Part shown: piece by piece, positions 5,224-20,673 of the stretch | Numbering within the stretch: position 1 is the first letter of the stretch | Layout: each line of letters begins with the position of its first letter | From: Chthonomonadales bacterium | GTDB taxonomy: Bacteria; Armatimonadota; Chthonomonadetes; Chthonomonadales; CAJBBX01 | DNA length: 64,000 bases | Assembly: GCA_035477595.1 (NCBI GenBank) | Contig: DATIKM010000046.1 | Span: 19,171 to 83,170, forward strand | Direction: 5' to 3' | Program-made: the position numbers and the translations under genes | Notes under the pieces: generated by a model | The model's input: the letters and a program-made list of their open reading frames with translations, nothing else | Database searches by the model: none | What the model was told of the DNA's origin: nothing

Positions 5224-5257
5224 CGGGGGGCGTCCTCCTTGGGCGGGCGGTGGCGCC

Positions 5258-5287
5258 ATTGTAGCGGTGTGGCGGGCCTGGGGGCAA
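5258..5287 (-). promoter_or_regulatory. sigma70-like promoter for GH95 operon (TTGCCC-N18-TACAAT on minus strand)
   Basis: Reverse complement of 5282-5287 is TTGCCC and of 5258-5263 is TACAAT. The spacer is 18 nt. The -10 box lies about 35 nt upstream of ATG 5223. Confidence 0.45.
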
Positions 5288-5509
5288 GTGGGGGTCTGGT
5301 GAGCGGAGAGACGAGCCGGCGGAGGGACGGGAGTGACCCGACGCCCAATGCCGCGGGCGGGCAATGCGACTAAGGCCGCATCCGCATACCGCCGACGGTG
5401 GCGCCTCCCGCTCCTCGATAGCTTCTGGCGCGGCAGGTTCGCAGTGGGTGGCGCATGCGCAGTCTTACCAGTGCGACCTTCCAGTGGCAGATCGCGGCGG
5501 GAGATCCTC

Positions 5510-5827
5510 GTGCTGGACGCCCTGCGGGCTGCGCCCGGGACGTGGGTGATCTGCTACTGGAGGTACAGGTCGGGCCGCAAGGTATATTGCGTGCTATCCG
5601 GCGCTGCGGGCGAGGCGGAACTCGAGGTGAGGCACGCGCGCTACGTTGCCGCCGACCTGCACGCCTTTCGCGAGCCCTTCCAGCGAGGGCGCAACTGGCT
5701 GGTCCGCCCCCCACGGGATGGAGCCCTGGCGGAGGGCTTGGGGGATCTCATCATGGATGTGGCCGACGCCGCAGGCGTGCTCACGCATCGTGCCAGCGCG
5801 ACAAGCAGAGGGAGCTTCAAGCCATGA
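5510..5827 (+). CDS. small hypothetical protein (~105 aa), translationally coupled to the downstream gene
   Basis: Part of track ORF 5333..5827. From about 5510, third-codon positions are about 80% G/C while second positions are mixed. GTG at 5510 is preceded by GGGAG. Its TGA (5825-5827) overlaps ATG 5824 of the next gene (ATGA). No family recognised; the start is uncertain. Confidence 0.5.
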   Translation: MLDALRAAPGTWVICYWRYRSGRKVYCVLSGAAGEAELEVRHARYVAADLHAFREPFQRGRNWLVRPPRDGALAEGLGDLIMDVADAAGVLTHRASATSRGSFKP

Positions 5828-7206
5828 CAGAGAGCAACAGTCGCCTGACCGCCTCGCTCTGCTTCGACGTGGAGGACATCGTCGCGCCGGAGGCCGACGA
5901 CGCCGCGCTCTGGATGGCCGAGGAGCTGCGCGCCCACGGGCTCCGGGGCTCCTTCTTCGTGATGGGGGAGCTCGCACGGCGATGGGAGCGGCGCGGCCGT
6001 CGCGACGTCATCGAGGCGGTCCGGCGCCACGCCGTGGGCTACCACTCCACCTGGCACTCGGTCCGGCCCACCACCACCGAGACCCTTCTCGACCTCGACT
6101 TCGCCGCCGGGATCGAGGCCATGCGAGCGCGGGACGGCGCCGGATGGGCCGAGACCGAGCGCATCCTCGGCGTTCCGCTCCTCGGTTGGGGGCGGACCGG
6201 CAACTCCTGGGGGCCCTCGGTGCACGGCCTGATGGCTGAGGTCGGGCGTGCCTACGTCTACAGCCCAGTTGAGGCCGCGGGCGCCGACGTCTGGTGGTAC
6301 GGCGGAAGCCTGAGCTTCGCGGGTGCGCTCGCCGGCGGGTTCGATGAGGACCTTCGCGACGACGACGCCTTCGAGCGCCGACTTGCCGAGACCGACCGGG
6401 TACTCCGTGCCGTCCACGCCGAACGCGATCCCGGGCAACGCTGGGTCTGCTTCTTCGTGTGCCACCCAACCCGCGCCGTGCACGACGCCTTCTGGGACGC
6501 GGTGAACTTCGCGCGCGGCGCCTGCCCGCCCGAGCCGGAGTGGCGCCCGGCGCCCGCGCTCCGGCCCGACCTGCTTCCGGTGGTGAAGCGCAACTTCGCG
6601 CGGCTCTGTGCGTGGGTACGGGAGCACCCTCTGCTCGACGCGGTTGGCTGGGACGAGGCGATCCGCCGATTCAGCGGGCAGCGCGCGCTCGTCACGCGGG
6701 AGGAGGCCCTCGCGATAGCCAAACGCGTTGCGCGGGAGCGGCGACTGACGTGGGGCGACGGGCTGAGCGCGGCGGAGACGCTGCTCCTCCTGGCGGAGGC
6801 GGTCCTGAGCGGCGATGGGCCTTTCGCCCGACGGGACGTCCGTGGCCCGCTCCGCGCGCCGCCCCGCTGGAGCGGCGGGCGCCTCCCGCAGGAGGCGCTG
6901 CGGCAGGCGGCAGGCGCCCTCCTCGCCACGCGGCCCGGCGCCTGCCTGCCGGAGGCCGTTCAGACGCAGGTCGGCGTCGTCGGCATCGGCACGCTGCTCG
7001 TGGCGTTCGGGGACCACCTGTGCGACGACCCCGCACCGGAGGGCGTCGTCGGGGAGCCCTGGCCCACGGAGGCAGAGGCGATCGGCGCGGCGGTGGAGCG
7101 CGCCATCCCGGAGTGGATCGTGCACCCCACCGACTTCGACCTGACGAACCTGATCGAGCAGACGCGCCTGCAGTGCTGGACGCTGAAGCCCGCGCTGGGG
7201 GAGTGA
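5824..7206 (+). CDS. hypothetical protein, possibly polysaccharide-deacetylase-like fold
   Basis: ATG at 5824. The N-terminus ...LTASLCFDVEDIVAPEADDAALWMAEELRAHGLRGSFFVMG...HAVGYHSTWH loosely recalls NodB/CE4-type or related deacetylase folds. The functional call is weak. Confidence 0.7.
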   Translation: MTESNSRLTASLCFDVEDIVAPEADDAALWMAEELRAHGLRGSFFVMGELARRWERRGRRDVIEAVRRHAVGYHSTWHSVRPTTTETLLDLDFAAGIEAMRARDGAGWAETERILGVPLLGWGRTGNSWGPSVHGLMAEVGRAYVYSPVEAAGADVWWYGGSLSFAGALAGGFDEDLRDDDAFERRLAETDRVLRAVHAERDPGQRWVCFFVCHPTRAVHDAFWDAVNFARGACPPEPEWRPAPALRPDLLPVVKRNFARLCAWVREHPLLDAVGWDEAIRRFSGQRALVTREEALAIAKRVARERRLTWGDGLSAAETLLLLAEAVLSGDGPFARRDVRGPLRAPPRWSGGRLPQEALRQAAGALLATRPGACLPEAVQTQVGVVGIGTLLVAFGDHLCDDPAPEGVVGEPWPTEAEAIGAAVERAIPEWIVHPTDFDLTNLIEQTRLQCWTLKPALGE

Positions 7207-7214
7207 CCGCGCCG

Positions 7215-8177
7215 TTACGCTCCCCGCGCGTCGGCCAGCGCGCGCAGCGCGTGCAGAAGCGCGGTCATCGCCGCGGGGAGCGGGGCCTCGAAACGGAGCC
7301 GCTCGCCGGTGCGCGGATGGTCGAACGCCAGCTCCCGCGCGTGGAGCGCCTGCCCGCCGAGGGCCTCCGCCGCCTCCGCCGCGCGCGCTGCCGGGCCGCC
7401 GCGGCGCGCGCCCGGGAAGCGCCGCTCTCCGCCATAGAGCGGGTCACCCACCACCGGGTGCCCTATGTGCGCGCAGTGCACCCGAATCTGGTGCGTGCGG
7501 CCCGTGCGCAGCCGCGCCTCCAACAGCGCGCATGGGCCCAGCCGCTCCAGAACGCGCAGCTCCGTGAACGCCTGCCGCCCGCGGCCGGCCTGCGTCACAA
7601 CCGCCATCTTCTTCCGGTCCGAAGGGTTCCGGCCGATCGGCGCCTCCACCAGCGCTTCCTCGAAGCGCGGCTGGCCCCAGACAGCCGCGACGTAGACGCG
7701 GCGCGCCGTCCGCTCCTGGATTTGCCGCTGCAGGCTGGTAAGGGCGGCGTCGCTCTTGGCCACCACGATCAGCCCGGTGGTATCCTTGTCCAGCCGATGT
7801 ACGATGCCAGGCCGCACCTCGCCGCCGATGCCAGCCAGGTCACTGGCGTGCGCCAGCGCCGCATTGGCCAACGTACCGGACGGGTTGCCGGGCGCCGGGT
7901 GGACCACCATGCCGCGCGGCTTGTCGACCACGAGCACGTCGGCGTCCTCGTAGACCACGCTGAGGGTGATGGGCTCCGGCTCGAGGCGCGCCTCGACGGG
8001 CTCCGGCACGGACGCCTCGACGATCTCGCCGGTCCGCAGGCGACGGCTTGGGCGTGCCGGGGTGCCATCAACCGTTGCCGCGCCCGCCTCCAGCAGGCGG
8101 CGGGCCTCCGTGCGCGACACGCCCAGGCAGCGCGCGACGAAGAGGTCGGCGCGCTCCTGGTCGCTCTCCTGCGGCAC
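7215..8177 (-). CDS. rluD: 23S rRNA pseudouridine synthase, RluA/RluD family
   Basis: S4-like N-terminus (RADLFVARCLGVSRTEARRLLEAGAATVDG), then LVVDKPRGMVVHPAPGN and GIVHRLDKDTTGLIVVAKS motifs. Preferred start is the in-frame GTG at 8177; the track ORF extends to 8372. Confidence 0.85.
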   Translation of the reverse strand: MPQESDQERADLFVARCLGVSRTEARRLLEAGAATVDGTPARPSRRLRTGEIVEASVPEPVEARLEPEPITLSVVYEDADVLVVDKPRGMVVHPAPGNPSGTLANAALAHASDLAGIGGEVRPGIVHRLDKDTTGLIVVAKSDAALTSLQRQIQERTARRVYVAAVWGQPRFEEALVEAPIGRNPSDRKKMAVVTQAGRGRQAFTELRVLERLGPCALLEARLRTGRTHQIRVHCAHIGHPVVGDPLYGGERRFPGARRGGPAARAAEAAEALGGQALHARELAFDHPRTGERLRFEAPLPAAMTALLHALRALADARGA

Positions 8178-8216
8178 GTTCCACCGTCCCGCCGCAGCGC
8201 TGTCGTCCGGCCGTCC

Positions 8217-8246
8217 TTGACGCAAAGTTGAGTTATCCGATATACT
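8217..8246 (+). promoter_or_regulatory. sigma70-like promoter for metY (TTGACG-N18-TATACT)
   Basis: TTGACG at 8217-8222 and TATACT at 8241-8246 sit in the only AT-rich patch of the rluD/metY divergent region. An AGGAGG SD precedes ATG 8291. Confidence 0.6.
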
Positions 8247-8248
8247 AA

Positions 8249-9589
<1,341 letters not shown>

Positions 9590-9612
9590 GCGGCTCCGCG
9601 CAGCGAGACCGC

Positions 9613-9648
9613 GCGCCCCCGCCCGGCCGTGCCAGCGGGCGGGGGCGC
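9613..9648. terminator. GC-rich hairpin between convergent metY and metX (possible bidirectional terminator)
   Basis: Perfect 13-bp stem GCGCCCCCGCCCG / CGGGCGGGGGCGC with a 10-nt loop. There is no U-tract on either side. Confidence 0.45.
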
Positions 9649-9692
9649 ATCCGTCTCGGCCTCCCGCAACGTGTGGCCGAAGTGGCCCGGCG

Positions 9693-10859
9693 TCAGGCGG
9701 CGGGTGCGCCCACGCGCTCCAGGAACCCACGCAGCGGCTCGATCATCTTCTCCTGCTCCACCAGGAAGGCGTCGTGGCCATACTCGGAGTCCATCTCCCA
9801 ATAGGCGGAGTCGATGCCGAGCGCGGTGAGCCGCCGGTGCATCTCCTGGATGTGGTGCGGATAGAAGAGGATGTCGCTGCGGATGCCGATGAGTAGGACA
9901 CGCGCTCGGATCCGCTCGTAGGCGGCCCCAAGCGAGCCGTGGCCGCGGCTGATGTCGTGCAGGTCGATGGCCCTGCTGATGTAGAGGTAGGAGTTCGCGT
10001 CGAACCGGCGCACGAGCTTCTCGCCCTCGTCGTGCAGGTAGCGCTCCACGTCGAAGCGGGCGTGGAGGTCGTGCTCGATGGACGACTTCTCCATGGCTGG
10101 TTTGCGGGCGAACATGCTCTGCATAATCGGGTCGGAGAGGTAGGTGATGGTGCCGATCATGCGGGCGAGCGCCAGCCCGTCGCGCGGCCCGGCCTCGCCG
10201 TAGTAAGCCCCCTTCTTCCACCCGGGGTCGAGCATGATGGCGCGGCGCATGCACTCATTGAACGCGATGATCTGGGCAGTGCTGCGCGCGCAGGACGCGA
10301 TGGGGCAGGTGGCCTCCACCATGTCCGGGTACGTGACGGCCCAGTCGAGCGCCTGCATCCCGCCCATCGAGCCGCCGACGACCAGGTGGACCCGTTGCAC
10401 TCCCAGATGGCGCAGCAGACGGCGCTGCACGCGCACCATGTCGCGCACCGTGACGATGGGGAAGCTCAGGCCGTAGGGCTTCCCGGTGCGGGGATCGATG
10501 GAGGAGGGGCCCGTGGAGCCACGGCACCCGCCCAGCACGTTCGGCGCGACCACGAAGAGGTGATCCGTGTCCAGCACCTTGCCCGGGCCGATGAGCGGGT
10601 CCCAGTATCCGGCGTACTTGCTGTCGGGCTGATAGCGGCCCGCAGCGTGGGAGCTGCCGGTGAGGCCGTGGACCACCAGGACGCAGTTCGTGCCTGACGC
10701 GTTCAGTTCGCCGTAGGTCTCGTAGCAGACGTCAACGCGCGGGAGGGCCTGGCCGTTCTCGAGGACGAAGGGCTCCTCTTGCGACGCGAAGGACCACATC
10801 TTCCGCTCAACGATGCCGACGGAGTTCTGTGCGCTGGTGGAGAGGATCGCCTCGGCCAT
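9693..10859 (-). CDS. metX: homoserine O-acetyltransferase
   Basis: VLVVHGLTGSSHAAG, YWDPLIGPGKVLDTD..FVV.PNVLGGCRGSTGPSS and GGSMGGMQAL are classic MetX alpha/beta-hydrolase blocks. Confidence 0.9.
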   Translation of the reverse strand: MAEAILSTSAQNSVGIVERKMWSFASQEEPFVLENGQALPRVDVCYETYGELNASGTNCVLVVHGLTGSSHAAGRYQPDSKYAGYWDPLIGPGKVLDTDHLFVVAPNVLGGCRGSTGPSSIDPRTGKPYGLSFPIVTVRDMVRVQRRLLRHLGVQRVHLVVGGSMGGMQALDWAVTYPDMVEATCPIASCARSTAQIIAFNECMRRAIMLDPGWKKGAYYGEAGPRDGLALARMIGTITYLSDPIMQSMFARKPAMEKSSIEHDLHARFDVERYLHDEGEKLVRRFDANSYLYISRAIDLHDISRGHGSLGAAYERIRARVLLIGIRSDILFYPHHIQEMHRRLTALGIDSAYWEMDSEYGHDAFLVEQEKMIEPLRGFLERVGAPAA

Positions 10860-10860
10860 G

Positions 10861-11127
10861 CTAGAGCGCCCACTCCTGTGTGCCGTCGAAGCCGATCGTG
10901 CTCAGTTCGATGCCGATCTCACCGAGCCAGGCGATGCCTCGCTCGAGCGCCTCCTTCTCGCCGGTCAGCTCGAGGTAGATGAAGCCGCCGTCGGTCGGGC
11001 TGAAGTCGGCGGCGCGAACGTTGGGCACAAGGCCGAACCGGGTGACGAGCTGATAGAGCACCGGCTCGCGGACCCGCTCGGCCGGGTAGTTAAGCTGCAC
11101 GCGGATGGTGTCGGTCTCGCTGGGCAT
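10861..11127 (-). CDS. stand-alone NIL (ferredoxin-fold, MetN C-terminal-like) domain protein
   Basis: ATG at 11127 has an AAGGAG SD. The 88-aa product is MPSETDTIRVQLNYPAERVREPVLYQLVTRFGLVPNVRAADFSPTDGGFIYLELTGEKEALERGIAWL. Its stop is 1 nt from the metX start. The rest of track ORF 10861..11298 is the shadow of the tRNA. Confidence 0.7.
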   Translation of the reverse strand: MPSETDTIRVQLNYPAERVREPVLYQLVTRFGLVPNVRAADFSPTDGGFIYLELTGEKEALERGIAWLGEIGIELSTIGFDGTQEWAL

Positions 11128-11187
11128 GGCGGCGCTCCTTGCGGGTCGCGGCGCATCACGGCAGGGGCGGGGCGGACTGGCTCTCAG

Positions 11188-11217
11188 TTGACTCTGCCTT
11201 CGCAGCGCCTCTATAAT
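11188..11217 (+). promoter_or_regulatory. sigma70-like promoter for tRNA-Pro (TTGACT-N18-TATAAT)
   Basis: TTGACT at 11188-11193 and TATAAT at 11212-11217. The tRNA 5' end is 13 nt downstream of the -10 box. Confidence 0.65.
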
Positions 11218-11229
11218 ACCGGTTGCGAT

Positions 11230-11303
11230 CGGGGTGTAGCGCAGCCAGGTAGCGCTCTCGCTTTGGGAGCGAGCGGTCGCCGGTTCGAATCCGGCCACCC
11301 CGA
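11230..11303 (+). tRNA. tRNA-Pro (anticodon TGG)
   Basis: Hand-folded cloverleaf: acceptor CGGGGTG/CACCCCG, D stem GCGC/GCGC, anticodon stem CTCGC/GCGAG with loop TTTGGGA, variable loop CGGTC, T arm GCCGG-TTCGAAT-CCGGC, discriminator A. CCA is not encoded. Confidence 0.9.
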
Positions 11304-11348
11304 CGCCTCTCCTCTACGCCGCTCGCGCGCCCGCAACCTGGAGCCGCC

Positions 11349-13748
11349 ATGCCCCGCAATGCCCTGCCGCTCGCCGCCGCCTTGCTGGCGCTGTCCATCG
11401 CCGCCGCCGATGCTGCCCCGCCCACGAGAGGAACGCCCATGCGGCTGTGGTACCGGCAGCCCGCCCGCGACTGGAACGAGGCGCTGCCCATCGGTAACGG
11501 GCGCCTCGGCGCCATGGTCTTTGGGACCGTCCCGGAGGAGCGCCTTCAGCTCAACGAGGACACGCTCTGGTCGGGCGTGCCCCACGACTACACGGTCGAG
11601 GGCGCCTCGGCCCACCTGCCCGAGGTGCGGCGGCTCCTCTATGCCGGCCGCGAGGGCGAAGCCACAGCACTGGCTGACCGGCAGATGCTTGGCAGCCCGC
11701 GGTTCCAGCAGGCCTATCAGCCGCTCGGCGACCTTCGCATCGCCTTCCCAGACCACGCGGGGCCTACCGGCTACGTTCGCGAGCTGGACATCGCCCAGGG
11801 CCTCGCCCGTGTGCGCTACGAATCCGGCGGCGTGCTCCATTCCCGGACCGCCCTCTCGTCGGCGCCCGACCAGGTGCTGGCCGTCCGCCTCGAGAGTGCG
11901 CGCGCAGGCGGGCTGAGCTTCGACGCCTCCCTCTCCTCCCCGCACCGGAACGCAATCCGGCCCGAAGGAGCGGCCACCATCGAGATGGCGGGCCAGTGGG
12001 TGGGCGACGGCGAGACACGCGGCCTCCAGGCAGGCGTGAGAGGCGAGGGCATCCGCTTCACGACGGTGCTTCGCGCGGTGCTGGAGGGTGGCGGCTCGGT
12101 GACGAGCGAGGGGAACGTTCTGCGCGTGCGCGGCGCGACCCGTGCGACGCTCTTGCTGGCGGCGGCAACCAGCTTCCGCAACTTCCGCGACATCTCGGGT
12201 GAGCCGGGACCCGTCGCCCGCGCGCGGGTGTCGTCGGCCGCACGCCGCACGTGGGCAAGCCTGCTCGCACGCCACACAGCGGACGTGGGCCGGCTGATGG
12301 GCCGGGTGGCCCTCGACCTCGGCGGGCATGACGCCGACCAGCGTTCGACCGACGAGCGACTTGCGGCGGTCCGCGCAGGCGGCAGCGACCGGGCCCTCTG
12401 CGCGCTCCTCTTCCAGTTCGGACGCTACCTCCTTGTCTCGAGCAGCCGTCCCGGAACGCAGCCCGCCAACCTCCAAGGCATCTGGAACCAGTACATGGTC
12501 CCGCCATGGGGCAGCAAGTGGACCGTCAACATCAATACGCAGATGAACTACTGGCCCGCCGAGTCCACCAACCTGGCGGAGAGCCATACGCCCCTCTTCG
12601 ACCTGCTGGACGATCTCGCGGTGACCGGCGCTCGAACCGCGCGCGCGTTCTACGACGCCCGCGGTTGGGTAGTGCACCACAACGCCGACCTGTGGCGGGG
12701 GACGGCGCCGGTCGACGGCGTGTGGGGCGTATGGCCGATGGGCGCGGCCTGGCTCTCGCGGCACCCGTGGGAGGCCTATCTCTTCTCAGGCGACCGGGAG
12801 TTCCTGCGCCGGCGCGCCTGGCCGCTCATGAAGGGCGCGGCGCGGTTCGTGCTGGACTTCCTCACCGAGGCGCCCCCCGGCACCCCTGTGGCAGGCCGGC
12901 TGGTCACTACCCCGTCGCACTCGCCTGAGAACTCCTTCCGTAAGCCGGACGGATCCGTCTCGATGTTCACCTACGCGGCGACGATGGACCTGTTCATTGT
13001 GCGCGACCTGCTGAGCAACTGCCTGGCGGCGATCGACGCGCTGCCGACGGCGGAGCGGCGGGCCGAGGCGCCCCTTCGCGCCGAGATCGAGCGGGCGCTC
13101 GAGCGGCTGGCGCCGGTGCAGATCAGCCCGCGCGATGGCCGGCTGCAGGAGTGGATAGAGGACTACGACGAGCCGGAGCCGGGCCATCGGCACATGTCGC
13201 ACCTCTACGGGTTGCACCCGGCTGCGCAGATCACCGTGCGCGGCACGCCGGAGCTGGCGGCGGCGGCGCGCAGGAGTCTCGATCGCCGGCTGGCGCACGG
13301 GGGCGGCGGCACCGGCTGGAGCCGGTCGTGGCTGGTCAACTTCTTCGCGCGGCTCGAGGACGGCACGGAGGCGCACCGGCACCTGGAGCTCGTGTTGCGG
13401 CACTCCACGCTGCCGAACCTGTTCGGCACCCACCCGCCCTTCCAGATCGACGGCAACTTCGGCACGACAGCGGGCGTGGCGGAGATGCTGCTCCAGAGCC
13501 ACGCTGGCGAAGTGCACCTATTGCCGGCTCTGCCTCCCGCGTGGGCGGATGGCAGCGTCAGGGGCCTGCGGGCGCGCGGCGGCTTCGAGGTGGACATCGA
13601 GTGGCGTGCCGGCAGGCTGGTCTCCGCGACGGTACGCGCGCGGCCGGGCGTCGGCGCGTGTCGGGTCCGGTGGGGCGACCGCGTGGTGGAGGTCCGGCCG
13701 CAGCGAGGCCGCCCGGCGCGGCTGACGGCGGCGAGCTTCGCGCGCTGA
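11349..13748 (+). CDS. glycoside hydrolase family 95 (alpha-L-fucosidase / alpha-L-galactosidase type), secreted
   Basis: Signal peptide [22 protein letters not shown]. Blocks [36 protein letters not shown] and [14 protein letters not shown]. Paralogous to 2791..5223. Confidence 0.85.
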
Positions 13749-13920: not shown

Positions 13921-14964
13921 ATGGCAGTTCCGCCCATCGTCCGCGACCTGTCGACGGACGACCTAATCGTGGTGACCGGCGCCGGGGGCTTCATCGGAGG
14001 CGCCCTGGTGCGGTACTTCCACGAGGCCGGCTACAGCCGGATCCGCGCCATTGACCGCAAGCCGCTGCCCGACTGGTACCAGCGCACGCCCGGGGTGGAG
14101 TGCCTCTGCCTCGACCTGCGCCGGGAGGAGAGCGCGCTCAGGGCGGCGGAGGGCGCGGTCGAGGTGTACAACCTGGCCGCCGACATGGGGGGCATGGGCT
14201 TCATCGAGCGGTTCCGGGTGGAGTGCCTCCGGAGCATCCTCATCAACACGCACCTTCTGGAAGCGTCCCACCGCGCCGGGGTGCGCCGCTACTTCTTCTC
14301 CTCTTCGGCATGCGCCTACAACACCGAACTGCAGAAGGACCCTGCGTGCCGCGCGCTGAAGGAATCGGACGCCTATCCGGCAATGGCCGAGCGCGGCTAC
14401 GGCTGGGAGAAACTAGTCAGCGAGATGTTCTGCGAGGAGTACTGGGCGGAGCGTGGGCTCGAGACCCACATTGCGCGGCTCCACAACGTCTTCGGCCCCC
14501 ATGGAACGTGGTTCGGCGGGCGGGAAAAGGCGCCGGCGGCCATGTGTCGGAAGGCCATCGAGGCCATCGACACCGGCCACCACGAGATCGATATCTGGGG
14601 CAACGGCACGCAGACGCGCAGCTTCTGCTACATCGACGACTGCCTGCTGGGCATCGACGCCATCATGCACTGCGACCGGCTGATCGCCAAGCCGGTCAAC
14701 CTCGGGTCCAGCGAACTGGTCTCTATCAACGAACTGGTGACGATGGTGGAGCAGATCGCCGGGGTCGCGCTGCGCCGCACGTACGATCCGGACGCGCCGA
14801 TGGGTGTGGCAGGGCGCAACAGCGACAACGCCTTCATCCGCAGCGTGCTCGGATGGGAGCCATCGACGCCGTTGCGGACCGGTATGGAGAGGACCTACGC
14901 ATGGATCGAGCAGCAGTACCGGGACCGCAAGGCCGGGAAGCGCGTGGTAGAGGAGAAGTGGTAG
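13921..14964 (+). CDS. gme: GDP-mannose 3,5-epimerase (SDR superfamily)
   Basis: VTGAGGFIGG Rossmann motif, then NLAADMGGMGFI, SSACAYN, ESDAYPA..E.GYGWEKL, HNVFGPHGTWFGGREKAPAAMCRKA, IWGNGTQTRSF and GVAGRNSDN. These are near-collinear with plant and bacterial GME as I remember them. Confidence 0.85.
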   Translation: MAVPPIVRDLSTDDLIVVTGAGGFIGGALVRYFHEAGYSRIRAIDRKPLPDWYQRTPGVECLCLDLRREESALRAAEGAVEVYNLAADMGGMGFIERFRVECLRSILINTHLLEASHRAGVRRYFFSSSACAYNTELQKDPACRALKESDAYPAMAERGYGWEKLVSEMFCEEYWAERGLETHIARLHNVFGPHGTWFGGREKAPAAMCRKAIEAIDTGHHEIDIWGNGTQTRSFCYIDDCLLGIDAIMHCDRLIAKPVNLGSSELVSINELVTMVEQIAGVALRRTYDPDAPMGVAGRNSDNAFIRSVLGWEPSTPLRTGMERTYAWIEQQYRDRKAGKRVVEEKW

Positions 14965-15767
14965 GCATCGAGGCGCGGCTACGCGCGGTGATCGGCGCGG
15001 TGCCCTACCGGCTGGCGCTTGCGGGCGGCTGGATCGACCAGCCGTTCGTCTCGCGGCGCAACCCGGAGCCGCCGGGCTCGATGGTGGTGGTCAACCTGCG
15101 GCCCTGCCTCCGCTACATGGACCGCGCCGGGCTTGCCGCCGGCACGCGCCGGATCGCACGCGCGCTCTGGGACGGCGCAGTGCCCGCGGGTGAGCCCAGT
15201 GCGCTGGTGCGCGAGCTCTACGCGGCCGAGAACACCGGCAAGGCGGAGCCCTCCGGCTCGCAGGACATGATCGGCCTCATCTACCCCGGCATCAGCCGCC
15301 TGGACTACCGCGCCGACCATGAGAGCGGGCTCTTCCCCGCACACATCGAGACCGAGAACCGGCCGGCGGTGGTCGCCTGGCTCGAGGGCGTGCTCCACCT
15401 CCTGCCCATCTGCGCCCGGCCGGACGGCTACAACCCGCTCGGCGAGAAGCGGCTAGACCCGGCCTGGATCGCGCGCCTCGGCCGGACGGGTCGCGAATGC
15501 TTCGACGCCATCCAGGCCCGGGACGTGACGGCGCTGGGCGCCTCGCTGAACGCGTGCATGCAGTGCTGGCAGGTCATCCTGCCGCACACCGTGCACCACC
15601 CCACCCTTACGGTCGACCTCAAGGCGCTCCTCAGTGCCTACCAGGCCGAGTACCCCGGAGCGATGTACTCCGGATGCGGCGGCGGGTACCTGATCGTGGC
15701 ATCGGAGCAACCCGTGCCTGGTGCTCTCCGGATCCGCGTGCGCGCCGCCCAGGAGGGGGCCGCGTGA
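14958..15767 (+). CDS. GHMP-kinase-like protein (fucokinase / HddA-like), short, with degenerate phosphate-binding motif
   Basis: The GTG start at 14958 overlaps the gme stop (GTGGTAG). It has VPYRLALAGGWIDQPF (like the P.RI.LAGGWTD N-motif), GSQDMIG (like GWQDQ) and a C-terminal SGCGGGYLIVA (GHMP motif III). The PxGSGLGSS position reads DRAGLAAGT. Confidence 0.55.
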   Translation: MVGIEARLRAVIGAVPYRLALAGGWIDQPFVSRRNPEPPGSMVVVNLRPCLRYMDRAGLAAGTRRIARALWDGAVPAGEPSALVRELYAAENTGKAEPSGSQDMIGLIYPGISRLDYRADHESGLFPAHIETENRPAVVAWLEGVLHLLPICARPDGYNPLGEKRLDPAWIARLGRTGRECFDAIQARDVTALGASLNACMQCWQVILPHTVHHPTLTVDLKALLSAYQAEYPGAMYSGCGGGYLIVASEQPVPGALRIRVRAAQEGAA

Positions 15768-16588
15768 GCGTGGCGCTGGTCGCAGGGGCGTTCGACGACC
15801 TGCGCTCGCGCGACGTGCGGTTCCTGCAGGAGGCGGCTCGGCTCGGCGAGGTGAGCGTGCTCCTCTGGTCGGACGAGCGCGTGCGGGCTGCAACCGGCGC
15901 CCCGCCGCGCTTTGGGTACGATGAGCGGCGCTACCTCGTTGGCGCGCTCCGCTGGGTGCGGCACGCCCATCCGTACGGGGACGACCACGGACCGGACGCG
16001 CTGCCCGACATCTCCCTGGAGGTGCTGAAGCCGGACGTGTGGGTCGTACGCGCTGAGGAGGACACGCCTGGCAGACGGGCCTTCTGTCGTGCGCGCGGGG
16101 TCGCCTACCACGTCCTGGACGACGCCTGCCTTGCCGGCTTCCCGGCGCGACCGGCAGAGGCGGTATCCGAGCCCGATCGACCCCGCGTCGTCGTGACCGG
16201 CTGCTTCGACTGGTTCCACTCCGGGCACGTCCGCTTCCTGGAGGAGGCGGCGACGCACGGCGAGCTCCACGCGATCGTGGGCCATGACGCCAACATCCGC
16301 CTGCTGAAGGGCGAGGGCCACCCGCTCTTCCCGGAGGAGGAGCGCTGCTATATGGTGGACTCGGTGCGCCACGTGCACCGCGCTCACACCTCCACGGGCC
16401 ACGGGTGGATTGACGCTGCGCCCGAGATCGAGCGCCTGCGGCCGGCGTTCTACGTGGTGAACGAGGACGGCGACAGACCGGAGAAGCGGGCCTTCTGCGC
16501 CGAGCGCAGCATCGGTTACGTGGTTCTCGAGCGGGAGCCCAAGGAGGGCCTGCCCTCGCGCCGCAGCACCGATCTGCGCGGTTACTAG
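15764..16588 (+). CDS. tandem cytidylyltransferase-fold protein (TagD / RfaE-II / ECT-like); the N-terminal copy lacks HxGH
   Basis: The GTG start at 15764 overlaps the upstream TGA (GTGA). The C-terminal half has VVVTGCFDWFHSGHVRFLEEAATHGE...RSTDLR. The N-terminal half has the homologous VALVAGAFDDLRSRDVRFLQEAARLGE without HxGH. Confidence 0.7.
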   Translation: MSVALVAGAFDDLRSRDVRFLQEAARLGEVSVLLWSDERVRAATGAPPRFGYDERRYLVGALRWVRHAHPYGDDHGPDALPDISLEVLKPDVWVVRAEEDTPGRRAFCRARGVAYHVLDDACLAGFPARPAEAVSEPDRPRVVVTGCFDWFHSGHVRFLEEAATHGELHAIVGHDANIRLLKGEGHPLFPEEERCYMVDSVRHVHRAHTSTGHGWIDAAPEIERLRPAFYVVNEDGDRPEKRAFCAERSIGYVVLEREPKEGLPSRRSTDLRGY

Positions 16589-16616
16589 CGCCGCCCGCCC
16601 CGAGGAGTCCGCGCAG

Positions 16617-17882
16617 ATGGTCGATCCTGCCGCTCATCCGCTCATCCGGCTCGAGGGCGCAGTCCAGCACTACGCGTGGGGCGGCAACCGCTTCCTGCCC
16701 GACCTGCTTGGCAGGCCCAACCCTGACGGGCGGCCGTGGGCGGAGCTGTGGCTGGGGGCGCATCCGTCGGCGCCGGCTCTCGCCGTTCTGGGCGAGGGGT
16801 CGGAGCGGCTGGACCGTCTGGTTGCGGGCGACCCGCGTCGGGTGCTGGGTCCCCGCGCCGCGGCGATGCTCGACGGCCGGCTCCCCTACCTGCTCAAAGT
16901 GCTGGACGCGCGGCGGATGCTCTCCCTTCAAGCGCACCCCTCGCGCGCTCAGGCCGCCGAGGGCTGGGCTCGCGAGAACGCCGCCGGCGTGCCGCTCGAC
17001 GCACCCCAACGCTGCTACCGCGACGACAACCACAAACCCGAGGTCCACGTCGCGCTCACGGACTTCTGGATGCTTCACGGCTTCCGGCCGCTGGAGGCGG
17101 TCGCCAGCGAGATGCGGCGCACGCCCGAGGTGGGCGCGCTGATGCCGGAGTTCGGCGAGCGGCTGCGCGCGGCGCGGGGGCCAGCGGAGCGACGGTCGCT
17201 CCTGCGCGACCTTTATGCACGCGTGATGGGCATGCCGCAGGAGCGGGTGGACGCGCTCCTCGGCTCGCTGCTCGCCCGCACGCGCGCCGAGGTGGGCGAC
17301 CCGGACGCGCGGGGGCACTGGGCCCTGCGGGCCGCTGAGGAGTACGCATTGCCCGGCGGACGCCGCGATCGGGGCATCTTCTCGATCTACCTGCTGAACC
17401 TCGTCCGGCTGCGGCCAGGCGAGGGCACCTACCAGCCTGCGGGCACGCTCCACGCCTACCTCAAGGGCGCCAACGTGGAGATGATGGCCAGCTCGGACAA
17501 CGTGTTGCGCGGAGGGCTGACGCCCAAGCACGTCGACGCGCCGGAGTTGCTGCGCACCCTGGACTTTGGCGATGGCGAACCGGAAGTGCTTCGGGGAGAG
17601 CCAGCGGGCGGCGGCGAGCGCGTCTACCGCACCGCGGCTGAGGAGTTCGAGCTGAGCCGCATCGAGCTGGCGCCCGGTGCGATGCGCCACCTGCGCGCCG
17701 AGGCTGGGCCGGACTCCCTCATCGTGGTCGAGGGAGCTGCGGAGGCGCGATCCGGCGCGGTCGCCCTCCCGCTGCCCCGCGGCACTGCGCTCTTCGTGCC
17801 CCACGGGGTAGCCTACTCCCTTGGGGCGGGCAGCGCGCCTGCTGTCCTCTTCCGCGGCGCCGTGCCACTACCGCGTGCCTGA
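16617..17882 (+). CDS. manA: mannose-6-phosphate isomerase, class I
   Basis: VQHYAWGG, ELWLGAHP, LPYLLKVLDA...LSLQAHP, YRDDNHKPE and HAYLKGANVEMMASSDNVLRGGLTPKHVD are type I PMI hallmarks. Confidence 0.85.
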   Translation: MVDPAAHPLIRLEGAVQHYAWGGNRFLPDLLGRPNPDGRPWAELWLGAHPSAPALAVLGEGSERLDRLVAGDPRRVLGPRAAAMLDGRLPYLLKVLDARRMLSLQAHPSRAQAAEGWARENAAGVPLDAPQRCYRDDNHKPEVHVALTDFWMLHGFRPLEAVASEMRRTPEVGALMPEFGERLRAARGPAERRSLLRDLYARVMGMPQERVDALLGSLLARTRAEVGDPDARGHWALRAAEEYALPGGRRDRGIFSIYLLNLVRLRPGEGTYQPAGTLHAYLKGANVEMMASSDNVLRGGLTPKHVDAPELLRTLDFGDGEPEVLRGEPAGGGERVYRTAAEEFELSRIELAPGAMRHLRAEAGPDSLIVVEGAAEARSGAVALPLPRGTALFVPHGVAYSLGAGSAPAVLFRGAVPLPRA

Positions 17883-18057: not shown

Positions 18058-19350
18058 ATGCGCATGGCAAAGGACAGCTCAGCGCCGGGCAAGTTGGCGA
18101 TCCTTGTGGGCGGCGGACCGGCGCCCGGGATCAATGCCGTCATCGCGGGCGCGGCCCGCGAAGGTCTCCGCAACGGACTCGAGGTCATCGGCTGCCTCGA
18201 CGGGTTCAAGTGGCTCATCGCTGGCGATACGGGCCACACGATCCCGCTGACGTACGAGGTGGTGGACCGCGCGCGGCTACGCGGCGGTTCGATCCTCCGG
18301 ACCTCCCGCGAGAACCCCACGAACAACGTGACGAAGCTGGACAGCGTGATCGCCACGCTGAGGAATCTCGGCGTCACGCACCTGGTCACCATCGGCGGGG
18401 ACGACACCGCGTTCAGCGCGAGCGAGACGGCGCGCCATGCGGGCGCCGCGCTCCGCGTCGCCCACGTGCCCAAGACCATCGACAACGACTTGCCGCTTCC
18501 CGGCAACATGCCCACGTTCGGCTACAACACCGCCCGCGAGGTGGGCGGCGAGCTGGTGCGGAACCTGATGGAGGACGCGCGCACCGCCACGCGATGGTAC
18601 ATCGTGGTGGCGATGGGCCGCAGCGCGGGCCATCTGGCGCTAGGCATCGGGGTGCTCTCGGGTTCCTCGCTCACGATCATCCCGGAAGAGTTTGGCGCCG
18701 AGAAGCCAACGCTGGACGGCGTCTGCTCGGCCATCGAAGGCTCCGTGCTGAAGTCCCGCGCCATGGGCCGCGACTACGGCGTCGCCGTGGTGGCGGAGGG
18801 TGTGGCCGAGAAGATGGTGGACGAGCTGAAGGACCTCCCGATGGTGGAAGTGAAGCGGGACAAGCACGGCCACGTGCGGCTAGCCGAGGTTCCCTTCGGG
18901 CTCATCCTCAAGAAGGAGCTGCAGAAGCGCGCCGAGGCCCGGGGCGACAAGGAGGCCACCTTCGTCGACGTGACGATCGGTTACGAGCTGCGTTGCGCCG
19001 ACCCGATCGCCTTCGACGTGGAGTATGGGCAGCATCTTGGCTGGGGCGCCTCGCGCTACCTTCTCCGGCTGGGCGAGGAGGGCTGGGGAGAGACCGGCGC
19101 CCTCATCTCGGTGCAGTCTGGCGAGATCGTCCCCATACCGTTCCAGGACATCCTCGATCCCCAGACCGGCCGCACCACGGTGCGCCGCGTGAACATGAGC
19201 TCCGACGTGTACCGGAGCGCGAGGTCGGGCATGGTCCGCCTGGAGCGCGAGGACCTGGAGAGCGATAGCCGGTTGGCCCCCATCGCCGCAGCCGCGGGGC
19301 TCCCGCCCGACGAGATGCGCGCCCGGTTCGGTGGGACGCTGGGCCGCTGA
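18058..19350 (+). CDS. pfp: 6-phosphofructokinase, PPi-dependent type by signature residues
   Basis: ILVGGGPAPGINAVI, TIGGDDTAF and VPKTIDNDLP. Asp in GGDD and Lys in PKTIDND are the residues associated with PPi rather than ATP use. ATG at 18058 (MRMAKD); the track ORF extension is rejected. Confidence 0.85.
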   Translation: MRMAKDSSAPGKLAILVGGGPAPGINAVIAGAAREGLRNGLEVIGCLDGFKWLIAGDTGHTIPLTYEVVDRARLRGGSILRTSRENPTNNVTKLDSVIATLRNLGVTHLVTIGGDDTAFSASETARHAGAALRVAHVPKTIDNDLPLPGNMPTFGYNTAREVGGELVRNLMEDARTATRWYIVVAMGRSAGHLALGIGVLSGSSLTIIPEEFGAEKPTLDGVCSAIEGSVLKSRAMGRDYGVAVVAEGVAEKMVDELKDLPMVEVKRDKHGHVRLAEVPFGLILKKELQKRAEARGDKEATFVDVTIGYELRCADPIAFDVEYGQHLGWGASRYLLRLGEEGWGETGALISVQSGEIVPIPFQDILDPQTGRTTVRRVNMSSDVYRSARSGMVRLEREDLESDSRLAPIAAAAGLPPDEMRARFGGTLGR

Positions 19351-19375
19351 CCGCTGCCCCACCCCTAATCCGTGC

Positions 19376-19406
19376 CCGGGGCGCCGGCCTACCGCCGGCG
19401 CCCCGG
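19376..19406 (+). terminator. GC-rich hairpin downstream of the PFK gene
   Basis: Perfect 12-bp stem CCGGGGCGCCGG / CCGGCGCCCCGG with a 7-nt loop, starting 26 nt after the stop. No U-tract. It overlaps the longest-ORF start of the next gene. Confidence 0.45.
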
Positions 19407-19407
19407 C

Positions 19408-20673
19408 ATGTGTAACGCTGCGATGAGCGTCGTCGAGGCCTGGCCCACTCCGCCGCTCAGCCGCCGGATCGCGCTTGCGGCCACGATGTTCCTGGTCAGC
19501 GCGGTGTTCGGCTTCCTCCAGCCGTTCGTTCCCCTCTACCTGCGCGCATCGGGTATGAGCCTGACCGAAGTCGGGCTGGTGAGCTGCGCCGGAGCGGCCC
19601 TTGCCCTCCTGGGACAGCCCCTCCTCGGCCGTCTCTCCGACCGCTGGGACTCGCGCCGACCGCTGATGGTGGTTGCGGCTATCAGCGCGGGGCTCGCATA
19701 TCTGGGCTACCGGGGCGCAGAAGGCGCGCTCGCGTTCACCGCACTGACCTGCATCGGCGTGAACGGCACGCTCTACCTGAACGCGGTGGGCGGAGTCCTA
19801 GTCGGTCGCATGGTGGGTGCGGCGCGCGGCGGGCGGGCGTACGCGGGCTACCGCGTGTGGGGCTCCGTGGGCTATATCGTCGTGGCGCTGCTTGCGGGCG
19901 CGCTGCTCGCGGAGCGCGGGGGCGACCGGCTGGGGCGCGCCGACCTCGACCCCGTTTTTACCTATGGCCCGCTGCTCTTCTTCGTGATCGCGGCGGTCTC
20001 CCTCTTCGTGCCGGACCGCCGCTCCGAAGCGCCGCCGCCGAGTGCGCCCGATGCCGGCGGACGGGCGGCGCTGCCGGAGGCTCTGCGGTGGTTCCTGGCG
20101 GCGTACTTCCTCTACCAGTTCGGCCTCTATGGCGCCTCGGCGTACCTCGGTATCTTCATGAAGGACCTCGGCGCGGGCCCCATGTGGATCACCAAGATGT
20201 TCGCGGCGGGGGTGGTGTGCGAGGTGCTGGTGATGACGCAGGTGGGCCGCTTCGCGGACACCTACGGCCGCCGGCCGGTGCTGGCGCTGGCGTTCGTGCT
20301 CATGCCCCTGCGTCTCCTCTGCTACATACCCGCTCAGTCGCCCGGTTGGGTCGTGGCGGTGCAGACGCTCCACGGGCTCAATTTCGGCATCGTGGGAGCG
20401 CTCGCGGTGGTGCTCGTGAACGATCTGGCAGGGGAGCGAGAGCGCGGGGTCGCGCAGGCGCGCCTCTTCAGCGTGGCAGGGCTGGCGGCTGCGCTCGGAC
20501 CGGCGCTTTGCGGGTGGATCGCGGAGCGGTGGGGCATCGGGGCGATGTTCGCCGCAATGAGCGCCGTGGGCGCCGCAGGCGCAGCCCTGTTCCTGGCGCG
20601 GGTGCCGGAGTCCCTGCCCGGTGCGCGCGCGCTTCCGGGCTGGCGAGCGCTCATGGGCCGACACAGTCGCTGA
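19408..20673 (+). CDS. MFS transporter
   Basis: 12-TM-like hydrophobic pattern with LGRLSDRWDSRRPLM (MFS motif A). The start is set at ATG 19408 (ATG 19423 is an alternative), because 19372-19407 forms the terminator hairpin. Confidence 0.75.
   Translation: MCNAAMSVVEAWPTPPLSRRIALAATMFLVSAVFGFLQPFVPLYLRASGMSLTEVGLVSCAGAALALLGQPLLGRLSDRWDSRRPLMVVAAISAGLAYLGYRGAEGALAFTALTCIGVNGTLYLNAVGGVLVGRMVGAARGGRAYAGYRVWGSVGYIVVALLAGALLAERGGDRLGRADLDPVFTYGPLLFFVIAAVSLFVPDRRSEAPPPSAPDAGGRAALPEALRWFLAAYFLYQFGLYGASAYLGIFMKDLGAGPMWITKMFAAGVVCEVLVMTQVGRFADTYGRRPVLALAFVLMPLRLLCYIPAQSPGWVVAVQTLHGLNFGIVGALAVVLVNDLAGERERGVAQARLFSVAGLAAALGPALCGWIAERWGIGAMFAAMSAVGAAGAALFLARVPESLPGARALPGWRALMGRHSR

Follow-up and report, generated by a model that had tools for sequence, protein, structure and literature searches.

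This analysis concerns four co-directional genes in a 64,000-nucleotide stretch of contig DATIKM010000046.1 (hereafter the window, with a G+C content of about 71%), which comes from a metagenome-assembled genome (MAG) of the Chthonomonadales (Armatimonadota). The genes encode a 3,5-epimerase of GDP-mannose (GME), a protein that we call G3 (HSV72980.1, publicly named hypothetical protein), a protein composed of two cytidylyltransferase-like halves (CTase, HSV72981.1) and a class I phosphomannose isomerase (PMI), and they follow a gene for a glycoside hydrolase (GH) of family 95 (Table 1). We infer that they belong to a pathway of the Leloir or Fkp type, in which a sugar is salvaged or catabolised by way of nucleotide sugars, and which is built in part from two unannotated families. 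On balance it seems probable that GH95 and the GME-G3-CTase-PMI genes represent the form that a widespread inducible module takes in Armatimonadota. This module would carry a free L-fucose-configured hexose, most likely L-galactose, through the GDP-hexose pool into glycolysis.

The first-pass annotation of this DNA had described four coupled genes, and their coordinates, overlaps and gaps were all confirmed from the sequence. The GTG start codon of G3 lies within the end of gme, is preceded by GAGGAG at 14950-14955 and is at the position equivalent to that where the G3 homologues begin; this is an arrangement in the sequence indicating translational coupling. The start of CTase, which shares a GTGA with the stop codon of G3, has AGGAGG 7 nt upstream, and the 28-nt gap between CTase and PMI contains GAGGAG ahead of the PMI gene. 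The four genes are separated by 172 nt from GH95 on one side and by 175 nt from a gene for a pyrophosphate-type phosphofructokinase (PPi-PFK) on the other. No terminator-like or meaningful inverted-repeat sites were found in either of these gaps.

Table 1. Genes and junctions at the locus, in window coordinates
Feature	Coordinates	Strand	Details
GH95 glycoside hydrolase	11349..13748	+	Pfam PF22124
gme, short-chain dehydrogenase/reductase (SDR) epimerase	13921..14964	+	ATG 13921, stop TAG 14962-14964
G3, 269 aa	14958..15767	+	GTG 14958, stop TGA 15765-15767
CTase (CT), 274 aa	15764..16588	+	PF01467, start within GTGA
Class I PMI	16617..17882	+	ATG 16617; TIGR00218
PPi-type PFK	18058..19350	+	ATG 18058; NF041103
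Major facilitator superfamily (MFS) transporter	19372..20673	+	
Overlap of G3 start GTG and gme stop TAG	14958..14964	+	7 nt, read directly
GTGA overlap of CTase start and G3 stop	15764..15767	+	read directly

The epimerase, the GHMP-fold protein and their partners

The gme product aligns with the GME of Arabidopsis thaliana (2c59) over 323 residues at about 50% identity (2e-75, 257 bits) and with 8sg0 at 3.5e-74; the next-best SDR is at 2.7e-22, and the next family (MoeE5, GDP-fucose synthase) matches at about 3e-22. The equivalents of the catalytic residues Ser143, Tyr174 and Lys178 are kept (in SSAC and YGWEK), as is the acid/base pair of the epimerisation, Cys145 and Lys217 (in SSAC and GGREKAPAA). 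Judged by its sequence, gme encodes a true GME orthologue with its catalytic residues intact. At equilibrium GME gives GDP-mannose : GDP-L-galactose : GDP-L-gulose in a ratio of about 80:15:5, and since GDP-mannose is favoured the catabolic direction would be downhill. Only one bacterial GME, that of M. fumariolicum, has been characterised, and both that study and the reviews give the bacterial enzyme a hypothetical role in lipopolysaccharide (LPS) biosynthesis.

Searches of G3 against Pfam and NCBIfam gave no family at E <= 0.01, and in particular no GHMP or kinase model. The protein belongs to a large family, with 7223 of the 8000 scored candidates at E <= 1e-3. The best 120 homologues are 63-83% identical to it, none of them has a Pfam domain and all the source names seen for the family read 'hypothetical'. 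An AlphaFold model built on the alignment (pLDDT 83, pTM 0.86) gave 66 Foldseek matches in the PDB at E <= 1e-3, and all of the 50 listed are GHMP-fold proteins (probability 1.00, query TM-score (TMq) 0.41-0.64). The top match is the heptokinase WcbL (4usk, 3e-8). Near the top, too, are Fkp (9iip, its fucokinase part in complex with beta-L-fucose-1-phosphate; 2e-7, TMq 0.64), C. jejuni 4n3o and B. thetaiotaomicron 3k85. The modelled fold of G3 is that of the GHMP proteins, among which the anomeric kinases WcbL, Fkp and HddA are nearest to it. A direct sequence link to the solved kinases was considered and rejected. A profile of 30 homologues run against the PDB gave only a sub-threshold match, to Bacteroides Fkp (E = 0.59, over two short motifs), no significant Fkp match (NF009948) was found in NCBIfam either, and the fetched loci contained no canonical GHMP kinase for a profile-profile comparison.

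The residues that Fkp uses can nevertheless be placed on G3. According to the 2025 structure paper on Fkp, the transition state is stabilised by Arg592, and the sugar is stacked upon by Trp599 at C4-C6 and bound at O3/O4 by Asp601 and Thr602 together with Gly759 and Gln761. Asp762 serves O1 as general base, the sugar phosphate is in contact with Ala900 and the phosphates are held by the glycine loop 712-720. In the HMMER alignment the Fkp segment SPVRIDMAGGWTDTP lies over PYRLALAGGWIDQP of G3, which pairs R18 with Arg592, W25 with Trp599 and D27 with Asp601. The G100-S-Q102-D103 of G3 corresponds to Gly759, Gln761 and Asp762 (GxQD), and C240 aligns with Ala900. Counted from the aspartate of GxQD, motif III follows after 137 residues in G3 (at C240) and after 138 in Fkp. 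Each of the mapped residues is either invariant or conserved in at least 90% of the sequences, among close homologues as well as among relatives with as little as 32% identity. Motif III (SGCGGGY, 238-244), which aligns to ...PGAGGGGY of Fkp, is invariant. In motif II G3 has DRAGLAAGTR where the canonical sequence is PxGSGLGSSA; the family pattern is DR[ACS]G[ML]ATGTR and that of distant relatives RSG[LM]ATSTR. With G58, T63 and R64 conserved, the loop is recognisable, though non-canonical. G3 therefore has the appearance of a kinase acting at the anomeric carbon of an L-fucose-configured sugar, and from its motifs and modelled fold we predict a beta-L-galactose (or L-fucose) 1-kinase. Fkp itself accepts L-galactose, yielding GDP-L-galactose. 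For this protein the earlier label 'GHMP-kinase-like' is supported by the Foldseek result and the Fkp-type motifs, though not by any hidden Markov model (HMM).

The CTase matches PF01467 over residues 144-208 only (47.1 bits against a cutoff of 21), and its N-terminal half (residues 1 to about 137) has no Pfam match of its own. As the two halves are 39% identical to one another (E 9e-24), the protein is an internal duplication. The C-terminal half has FHSGH, of which HSGH is invariant in 30 homologues, and ends in the pattern RRxSTxLRG[FY] (here RRSTDLRGY). The N-terminal half has LRSRD at the corresponding position, with RSRH or RSRD and no HxGH in the 30 homologues, and is otherwise well conserved. 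It would seem that the N-terminal half is a degenerate copy and that the C-terminal half is catalytic. The AlphaFold model (pLDDT 90.8) superposes as a whole chain on human ethanolamine-phosphate cytidylyltransferase (ECT; 4xsv, TMq 0.77, 2.4e-15), while the best match of the single domains is HldC (27% identity; for the catalytic half it is the best in both sequence and structure), followed by TagD and Fom1. Like ECT/Pcyt2 (3elb, 4xsv) the CTase is a tandem pseudo-dimer in one chain; however, ECT has HxGH in both halves and a phospholipid context, whereas here the N-terminal HxGH is lost, the identity to ECT is 17% and the setting is sugar metabolism. Its resemblance to HldE and HldC lies in the pairing or fusion of a sugar kinase with an enzyme of the CTase fold for the activation of a beta-sugar-1-phosphate, but the kinase of HldE has a ribokinase fold in place of the GHMP fold of G3, and HldC is a single-domain enzyme that uses ATP. 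The scores against the models for HldC/RfaE domain II (TIGR02199, 67.9 bits) and TagD (TIGR01518, 41.4 bits) are well below the equivalog cutoffs of 181.5 and 165.4, which makes the CTase a member of the fold without an assigned family. This family has about 5500 members in the collection searched. We predict from sequence that it is an L-galactose-1-phosphate (or L-fucose-1-phosphate) nucleotidylyltransferase; its nucleotide is probably GTP, for which the partner genes are the only guide.

The PMI is well supported, with 203 bits against the equivalog cutoff of 116.2 for TIGR00218 and a match to PF20511 at 2.4e-27. GH95 matches PF22124 at 1e-165, and also PF14498 and PF21307, so that its family, as first annotated, stands; the signal peptide that would make it a secreted enzyme was judged by eye only, from a signal-like N-terminus. 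Its closest relative in the PDB is the fucose-specific XacAfc95 (7kmq, 1.8e-203) and the second is the L-galactosidase BACOVA_03438 (4ufc, 8e-187). The family includes a proven alpha-L-galactosidase, and GH95 is the probable supplier of free L-sugar. A Thr/His polymorphism was considered as an indicator of specificity and rejected, as the literature shows that the marker is not predictive; the sequence of GH95 cannot tell a fucosidase from an L-galactosidase.

Conservation and context of the module

A pattern scan of one genome per species returned at least 537 loci with a relative of G3, of which the best 80 were analysed with 10-kb flanks. Neighbour families were clustered after filtering the open reading frames (ORFs) by GC3, and adjacency was counted over the 76 informative loci. 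Judged by their record titles, the 80 loci come from Planctomycetota (23), Verrucomicrobiota (21), Acidobacteriota (17), Chloroflexota (12), Lentisphaerota (2), Latescibacterota (2) and Hydrogenedentes (1), with 2 in unclassified or doubtful bins. Cultured carriers among them are Anaerolinea thermolimosa IMO-1 (L045) and Limisphaera sp. VF-2 (L081). GME is directly upstream of G3 in 62 of the 76 loci (82%) and somewhere in the locus in 67, and the GME of the related loci is 70-80% identical to that of the window. The CTase is directly downstream of G3 in 53 of the 76 (70%). The gene order on which the earlier reading of this locus depended is thus conserved in relatives, and with Armatimonadota included both adjacencies extend over at least eight phyla, far beyond chance. 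Between phyla the identity of 70-80% for GME and of 60-70% for G3 is unusually high for orthologues, which suggests either horizontal spread or very strong constraint.

The recurrent neighbours are regulators, mannose enzymes and proteins with fucose labels. AraC regulators, mostly divergent, were found in 18 of the 80 loci and LacI regulators in 14, with one or the other in 32. A ManC-like mannose-1-phosphate guanylyltransferase is present in 17 loci, a GH29 enzyme of the alpha-L-fucosidase family in 13, a FucU mutarotase in 10, a FucP symporter in 8 (TIGR00885, 443 bits against a cutoff of 280) and FucI in 3. GH95 lies within 10 kb of G3 in a further three loci (L055, L078 and L085). There was no glycosyltransferase family among the 25 most frequent neighbour families on either side of G3 in the 80 loci. 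This context supports a catabolic rather than a biosynthetic module. Taken over the 80 loci, a putative kinase and nucleotidyltransferase, the epimerase and the exit enzymes are co-encoded with uptake and release functions, as would be expected of a Leloir-type pathway.

The enzymes for the exit from GDP-mannose that are missing from the window occur in related loci: ManC in the 17 mentioned above, phosphomannomutase (PMM) in L020 and L048, and PMI in L020. In L020, an Acidobacteriota groundwater MAG, GME-G3-ManC is followed by an uninterrupted ORF of 903 codons (3340-6051) that contains four PGM_PMM domains and a class I PMI, the latter 50% identical to the PMI of the window; this ORF is either a fusion or two genes read through. 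The order in L048 is GME-G3-PMM. Every enzyme between GDP-mannose and fructose-6-phosphate therefore clusters with GME-G3 somewhere, be it in L020, in L048 or, for PMI, in the window itself.

Three loci from Bryobacterales or Solibacteraceae (L044, L073 and L082) have no CTase and encode instead, as a separate protein, a fucose-1-phosphate guanylyltransferase of the Fkp N-terminal (Fkp-N) type (PF07959, 2e-56; positions 51-506 of NF009948). The order is GME-G3-FucP-FucPPase-LacI-GH29 in L073 and GME-G3-FucU-FucPPase-LacI in L082, where FucPPase denotes this fucose pyrophosphorylase. A Fucose_pyrophosphorylase match had at first been counted in five loci; the count was cut to three because the others were alternative-frame artefacts over the FucP gene. 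The exchange looks like a non-orthologous displacement, and if the Fkp-N-type enzyme replaces the CTase, then the CTase would have the same job, with a guanine nucleotide. Together with L073 and L020, the fullest example of the module is L019, in which the order is GH29-GH31-GH29-GME-G3-CT-LacI-FucP. The GH29-GH31-GH29 set of this Terriglobia peat MAG (3046-8688) is typical of the processing of fucosylated or L-galactosylated xyloglucan side chains.

An exhaustive search with the G3 profile gave 786 representatives. Many of the remote relatives are C-terminal domains fused to a CTase, either single (about 380 residues in all) or tandem (539 residues). In P0296 (593 residues) an L-rhamnose-type mutarotase, a CTase and G3 are fused, in an apparent operon with an FucP-like MFS transporter and GH29. 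Another CTase-G3 fusion, P0247, has a GME 0.9 kb away that is 54% identical to that of the window. The GHMP_kinases_C domain is detected, weakly but genuinely, in some of these remote relatives, at 1.3e-6 in P0357 and at 0.007-0.009 in P0314 and P0296. Other partners also occur. P0314 (667 residues) has the remote G3 domain fused to a GT2 glycosyltransferase, P0278 has it fused to a weakly GT1-like region, and in P0357 (655 residues) it is found with a PNP_UDP_1 phosphorylase domain and a CTase. Apparently the compact kinase module has also been put to use in other settings, which may be biosynthetic.

A few further features of the related loci were seen. An RmlD-like NDP-sugar reductase (PF04321, 9e-45) is encoded directly upstream of GME in L034 (7640-8497) and L042 (5550-6401), both from Limisphaerales or Verrucomicrobiia, and is also found in the flanks of L006, L047 and L052. 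Sulfatase genes flank the module in L068 (12624-14018, Anaerolineaceae) and L003 (1-172, Victivallales), which hints at sulfated (algal) glycan substrates in some taxa; in L068 there are also two CitMHS transporters upstream of GH29-GME-G3-ManC-FucU. L011 is a 3.4-kb contig (CAYWCK010000532.1) with G3 and a GME fragment, 67-68% identical to the proteins of the window, that was binned as 'uncultured Bifidobacteriaceae'. Given the short contig, this is probably a binning error and not a true case of the module in actinobacteria.

A proposed route for L-galactose and its rivals

What was observed above are the identities of the genes, their folds and conserved residues, their order, the fusions and the statistics of the neighbours; from these we infer the substrates, nucleotide, phosphoryl donor and direction of flux of the following pathway. 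The secreted GH95, or GH29 in other taxa, would free the L-sugar from plant or algal glycans, and in other taxa an FucP-type symporter would import it. Where present, a FucU or RhaM mutarotase would supply the beta anomer, which G3 would phosphorylate on O1 to give beta-L-galactose-1-phosphate. The C-terminal domain of the CTase would convert this with an NTP, presumably GTP, to GDP-L-galactose and pyrophosphate (PPi), and GME, working towards its favoured side, would turn GDP-L-galactose into GDP-D-mannose. ManC (using PPi), PMM and PMI would then lead from GDP-mannose through mannose-1-phosphate and mannose-6-phosphate to fructose-6-phosphate. The net reaction would be L-galactose + ATP -> fructose-6-phosphate + ADP, with GTP and PPi recycled. 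As the kinase would be the only irreversible step and stands at the entry, net flux would be fixed in the direction of free sugar into the GDP-hexose pool. L-galactose would also be the only L-fucose-configured sugar to reach central metabolism, because a 6-deoxy sugar is barred at PMM and PMI. E. coli FucP also transports L-galactose. A Leloir-like route for L-galactose had been suggested at first pass, with PPi-PFK as its link to glycolysis; gene order, folds, fusions and context make the route the best-supported reading, but the tie to PPi-PFK is not supported.

The pathway has features of several known systems. As in Fkp, an anomeric GHMP kinase would be followed by a sugar-1-phosphate guanylyltransferase acting on an L-fucose-configured sugar; however, G3, with its 269 residues, is only 13-14% identical to Fkp, the transferase of the module has the HIGH/CTase fold while that of Fkp is an unrelated NTP_transferase with a beta-helix, and the module is coupled to GME and mannose enzymes where Fkp is coupled to fucosyltransferases. 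With the Leloir and Isselbacher pathways (GalK, GalT or UDP-sugar pyrophosphorylases, GalE) it would have in common anomeric phosphorylation, nucleotide activation, epimerisation, the release of a hexose phosphate and the recycling of the nucleotide carrier. It would differ in using an L-hexose, a GDP carrier and a 3,5-double epimerase in place of UDP and a 4-epimerase, and a CTase-fold transferase in place of the HIT-family GalT, with its exit at mannose phosphate. PMI, PMM, GMP/VTC1 and GME, with the intermediates from fructose-6-phosphate to GDP-L-galactose, are also those of the plant Smirnoff-Wheeler (D-mannose/L-galactose) pathway to ascorbate, the first half of which the module is proposed to run in reverse. 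The entry would be by kinase and pyrophosphorylase, whereas the exit in plants is by the VTC2 phosphorylase and VTC4 phosphatase, and the module has no L-galactose dehydrogenase. The bacterial catabolism of L-galactose described in Bacteroides vulgatus (Hobbs 2014) and for the lgu genes of Luteolibacter LG18 (2025, PMC12632266) is oxidative, proceeding by L-galactose dehydrogenase through L-galactonate and D-tagaturonate. The presumed substrate and ecological role are the same, but that route has no phosphorylated or nucleotide-sugar intermediates and has no genes in common with the module. A search of the full-text literature for an L-galactose kinase, a bacterial GDP-L-galactose pyrophosphorylase or GDP-L-galactose in these phyla returned nothing relevant.

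Several observations weigh against a route for L-galactose. G3 has a degenerate motif II and no HMM match in Pfam or NCBIfam. Its motif I is only about 28 residues from the glycine-rich loop, compared with about 110 in Fkp (602-712), and the stretch of about 82 residues that is absent holds the modelled adenine contacts of Fkp, Asp644, Met645, Pro666 and Ile669. Without this segment the phosphoryl donor of G3 is uncertain, and the donor site would not be the standard one. To our knowledge no GTP-using member of the CTase fold has been characterised, and such an enzyme would be new. Among the informative loci, 9 of 76 have no GME within 10 kb and 22 of 76 have no nucleotidyltransferase next to G3; PMM or PMI is clustered in only three loci, the window included. 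As first annotated, neither PMM nor a GDP-mannose pyrophosphorylase is encoded in the window itself, and a regulator and FucP are missing from it too: tblastn of the window with ManC, PMM, AraC, LacI, FucP, FucU, GH29 and Fkp-N queries returned PMI only. The neighbours (FucP, FucU, GH29 and FucI) bear fucose labels, and the enzyme nearest to the GH95 of the window is specific for fucose. In nature, moreover, L-fucose is far more common than L-galactose.

The main rival is one in which L-fucose is salvaged into GDP-L-fucose. G3 and the CTase would be a split, non-homologous analogue of Fkp that turns scavenged L-fucose and L-galactose into GDP-sugars for the glycans of the cell, with GME balancing the pools. 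This would account for the retention in G3 of the residues with which Fkp contacts fucose, for FucP, GH29 and FucU among the neighbours and for the Fkp-N-type pyrophosphorylase in place of the CTase at three loci; the fusions of distant G3 relatives to GT2 or GT1-like domains (P0314 and P0278) and the guess in the literature that bacterial GME serves LPS biosynthesis also fit. We nevertheless regard it as unlikely, since G3 is linked more tightly to GME (82%) than to the nucleotidyltransferase (70%), PMI, PMM and ManC cluster with the module, AraC or LacI is present in 32 of the 80 loci, no glycosyltransferase family is among the most frequent neighbours and the GME equilibrium would drain GDP-L-galactose to GDP-mannose. 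A further rival, the alternative named at first pass, is a de novo synthesis of L-galactose or L-gulose glycans, in which PMI, PMM, ManC and GME start from fructose-6-phosphate and G3 and the CTase are accessory. The PMI, PMM, ManC and GME of L020 represent the exact biosynthetic order, and all steps but that of the kinase are reversible. Such a synthesis is, however, quite improbable, as it offers no role for an anomeric kinase, a mutarotase, an FucP importer or exo-glycosidases, has no glycosyltransferase, flippase or polymerase among the neighbours and sits poorly with the common sugar-responsive AraC and LacI regulators.

That G3 may not be a kinase at all is suggested by the same three features, the absence of an HMM match, the 82-residue deletion at the adenine site of Fkp and the degenerate motif II. 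G3 would then have some other chemistry or a binding role, the CTase, whose whole-chain fold is nearest to ethanolamine-phosphate cytidylyltransferase, would convert some phosphate other than a sugar phosphate to its CDP or ADP derivative, in the manner of ECT or TagD, and the link to GME would be of another kind. The invariance of the catalytic aspartate, the arginine, the sugar-stacking tryptophan and the motif III glycines makes this decidedly improbable. The fusions with CTase and a mutarotase and the co-operonic FucP and GH29 fit sugar activation, and the CTase scores only 41 against the TagD cutoff of 165 and has 17% identity with ECT. Lastly, the fucose-labelled neighbours and the abundance of L-fucose in nature might point to a new catabolism of L-fucose, through GDP-L-fucose and a GME-type conversion to GDP-6-deoxy-D-mannose that is then broken down. 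This seems extremely unlikely: a 6-deoxy sugar cannot pass PMM or PMI, both of which are clustered with the module, no enzyme for the breakdown of 6-deoxy-mannose was seen, and the canonical FucI beside G3 in three loci suggests that fucose goes elsewhere.

Within the route from L-galactose to fructose-6-phosphate, a more specific version may also be considered, improbable though it is, in which the pathway is complete and dedicated and is built on two unprecedented classes of enzyme, a minimal GHMP anomeric kinase that has lost the canonical adenine-binding lobe and a tandem CTase that exchanges guanylyl directly between GDP-mannose and L-galactose-1-phosphate. G3 would then depend either on a different phosphoryl donor or on a nucleotide site lent by its partner, and the degenerate N-terminal half of the CTase would permit a GalT-like transfer in an unrelated fold, making the cycle independent of free GTP and PPi.

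If the proposed route for L-galactose is correct, it would be the first route of the Leloir type, non-oxidative and by way of nucleotide sugars, for an L-hexose, as the bacterial L-galactose pathways in the searchable literature are all oxidative, and would give bacterial GME a physiological role. It also offers a testable function for two large unnamed families, that of G3 (more than 7000 sequences) and that of the tandem CTase. Carriers of the module, in Planctomycetota, Verrucomicrobiota, Acidobacteriota, Chloroflexota and Armatimonadota, are major uncultured organisms that degrade glycans in soil, peat, groundwater and sediments, and the module bears on the mineralisation of xyloglucan, rhamnogalacturonan II (RG-II), arabinoxylan side chains and red-algal galactans decorated with L-galactose or L-fucose. 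The enzymes would provide a compact pair of kinase and transferase with which to produce GDP-L-galactose and similar nucleotides of L-sugars, at present expensive and in short supply.

Flanking genes of the window

Downstream of PMI, the PPi-PFK scores 542.7 bits against the Thermotogales-type equivalog NF041103, just below the cutoff of 550. No homologue of it, or of the MFS gene that follows, is present among the 80 related loci, and both were rejected as members of the pathway; PPi-PFK had been suggested as the step into glycolysis at first pass. The 175-nt gap and this lack of conservation favour the view that the two genes are separate units.

Upstream of GH95, a near-consensus sigma-70-like promoter at 11188-11217 (TTGACT, 18 nt, TATAAT; 11 of 12 matches) was considered as the promoter of the operon and rejected, as a tRNA-Pro gene (anticodon TGG, 11230-11304, plus strand) directly follows it, 45 nt upstream of the GH95 start. 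Further upstream lies a methionine-biosynthesis cluster (8291-11298), with a MetY-type O-acetylhomoserine sulfhydrylase (8291-9589, plus strand; TIGR01326, 668 bits), the homoserine O-acetyltransferase MetX (9693-10859, minus strand; NF001209, 465 bits) and, on the minus strand immediately downstream of metX, a small NIL-domain protein (PF09383). The tRNA-Pro gene overlaps the 5' part of the ORF at 10861-11298 (minus strand), and the NIL-domain gene must therefore start further in.

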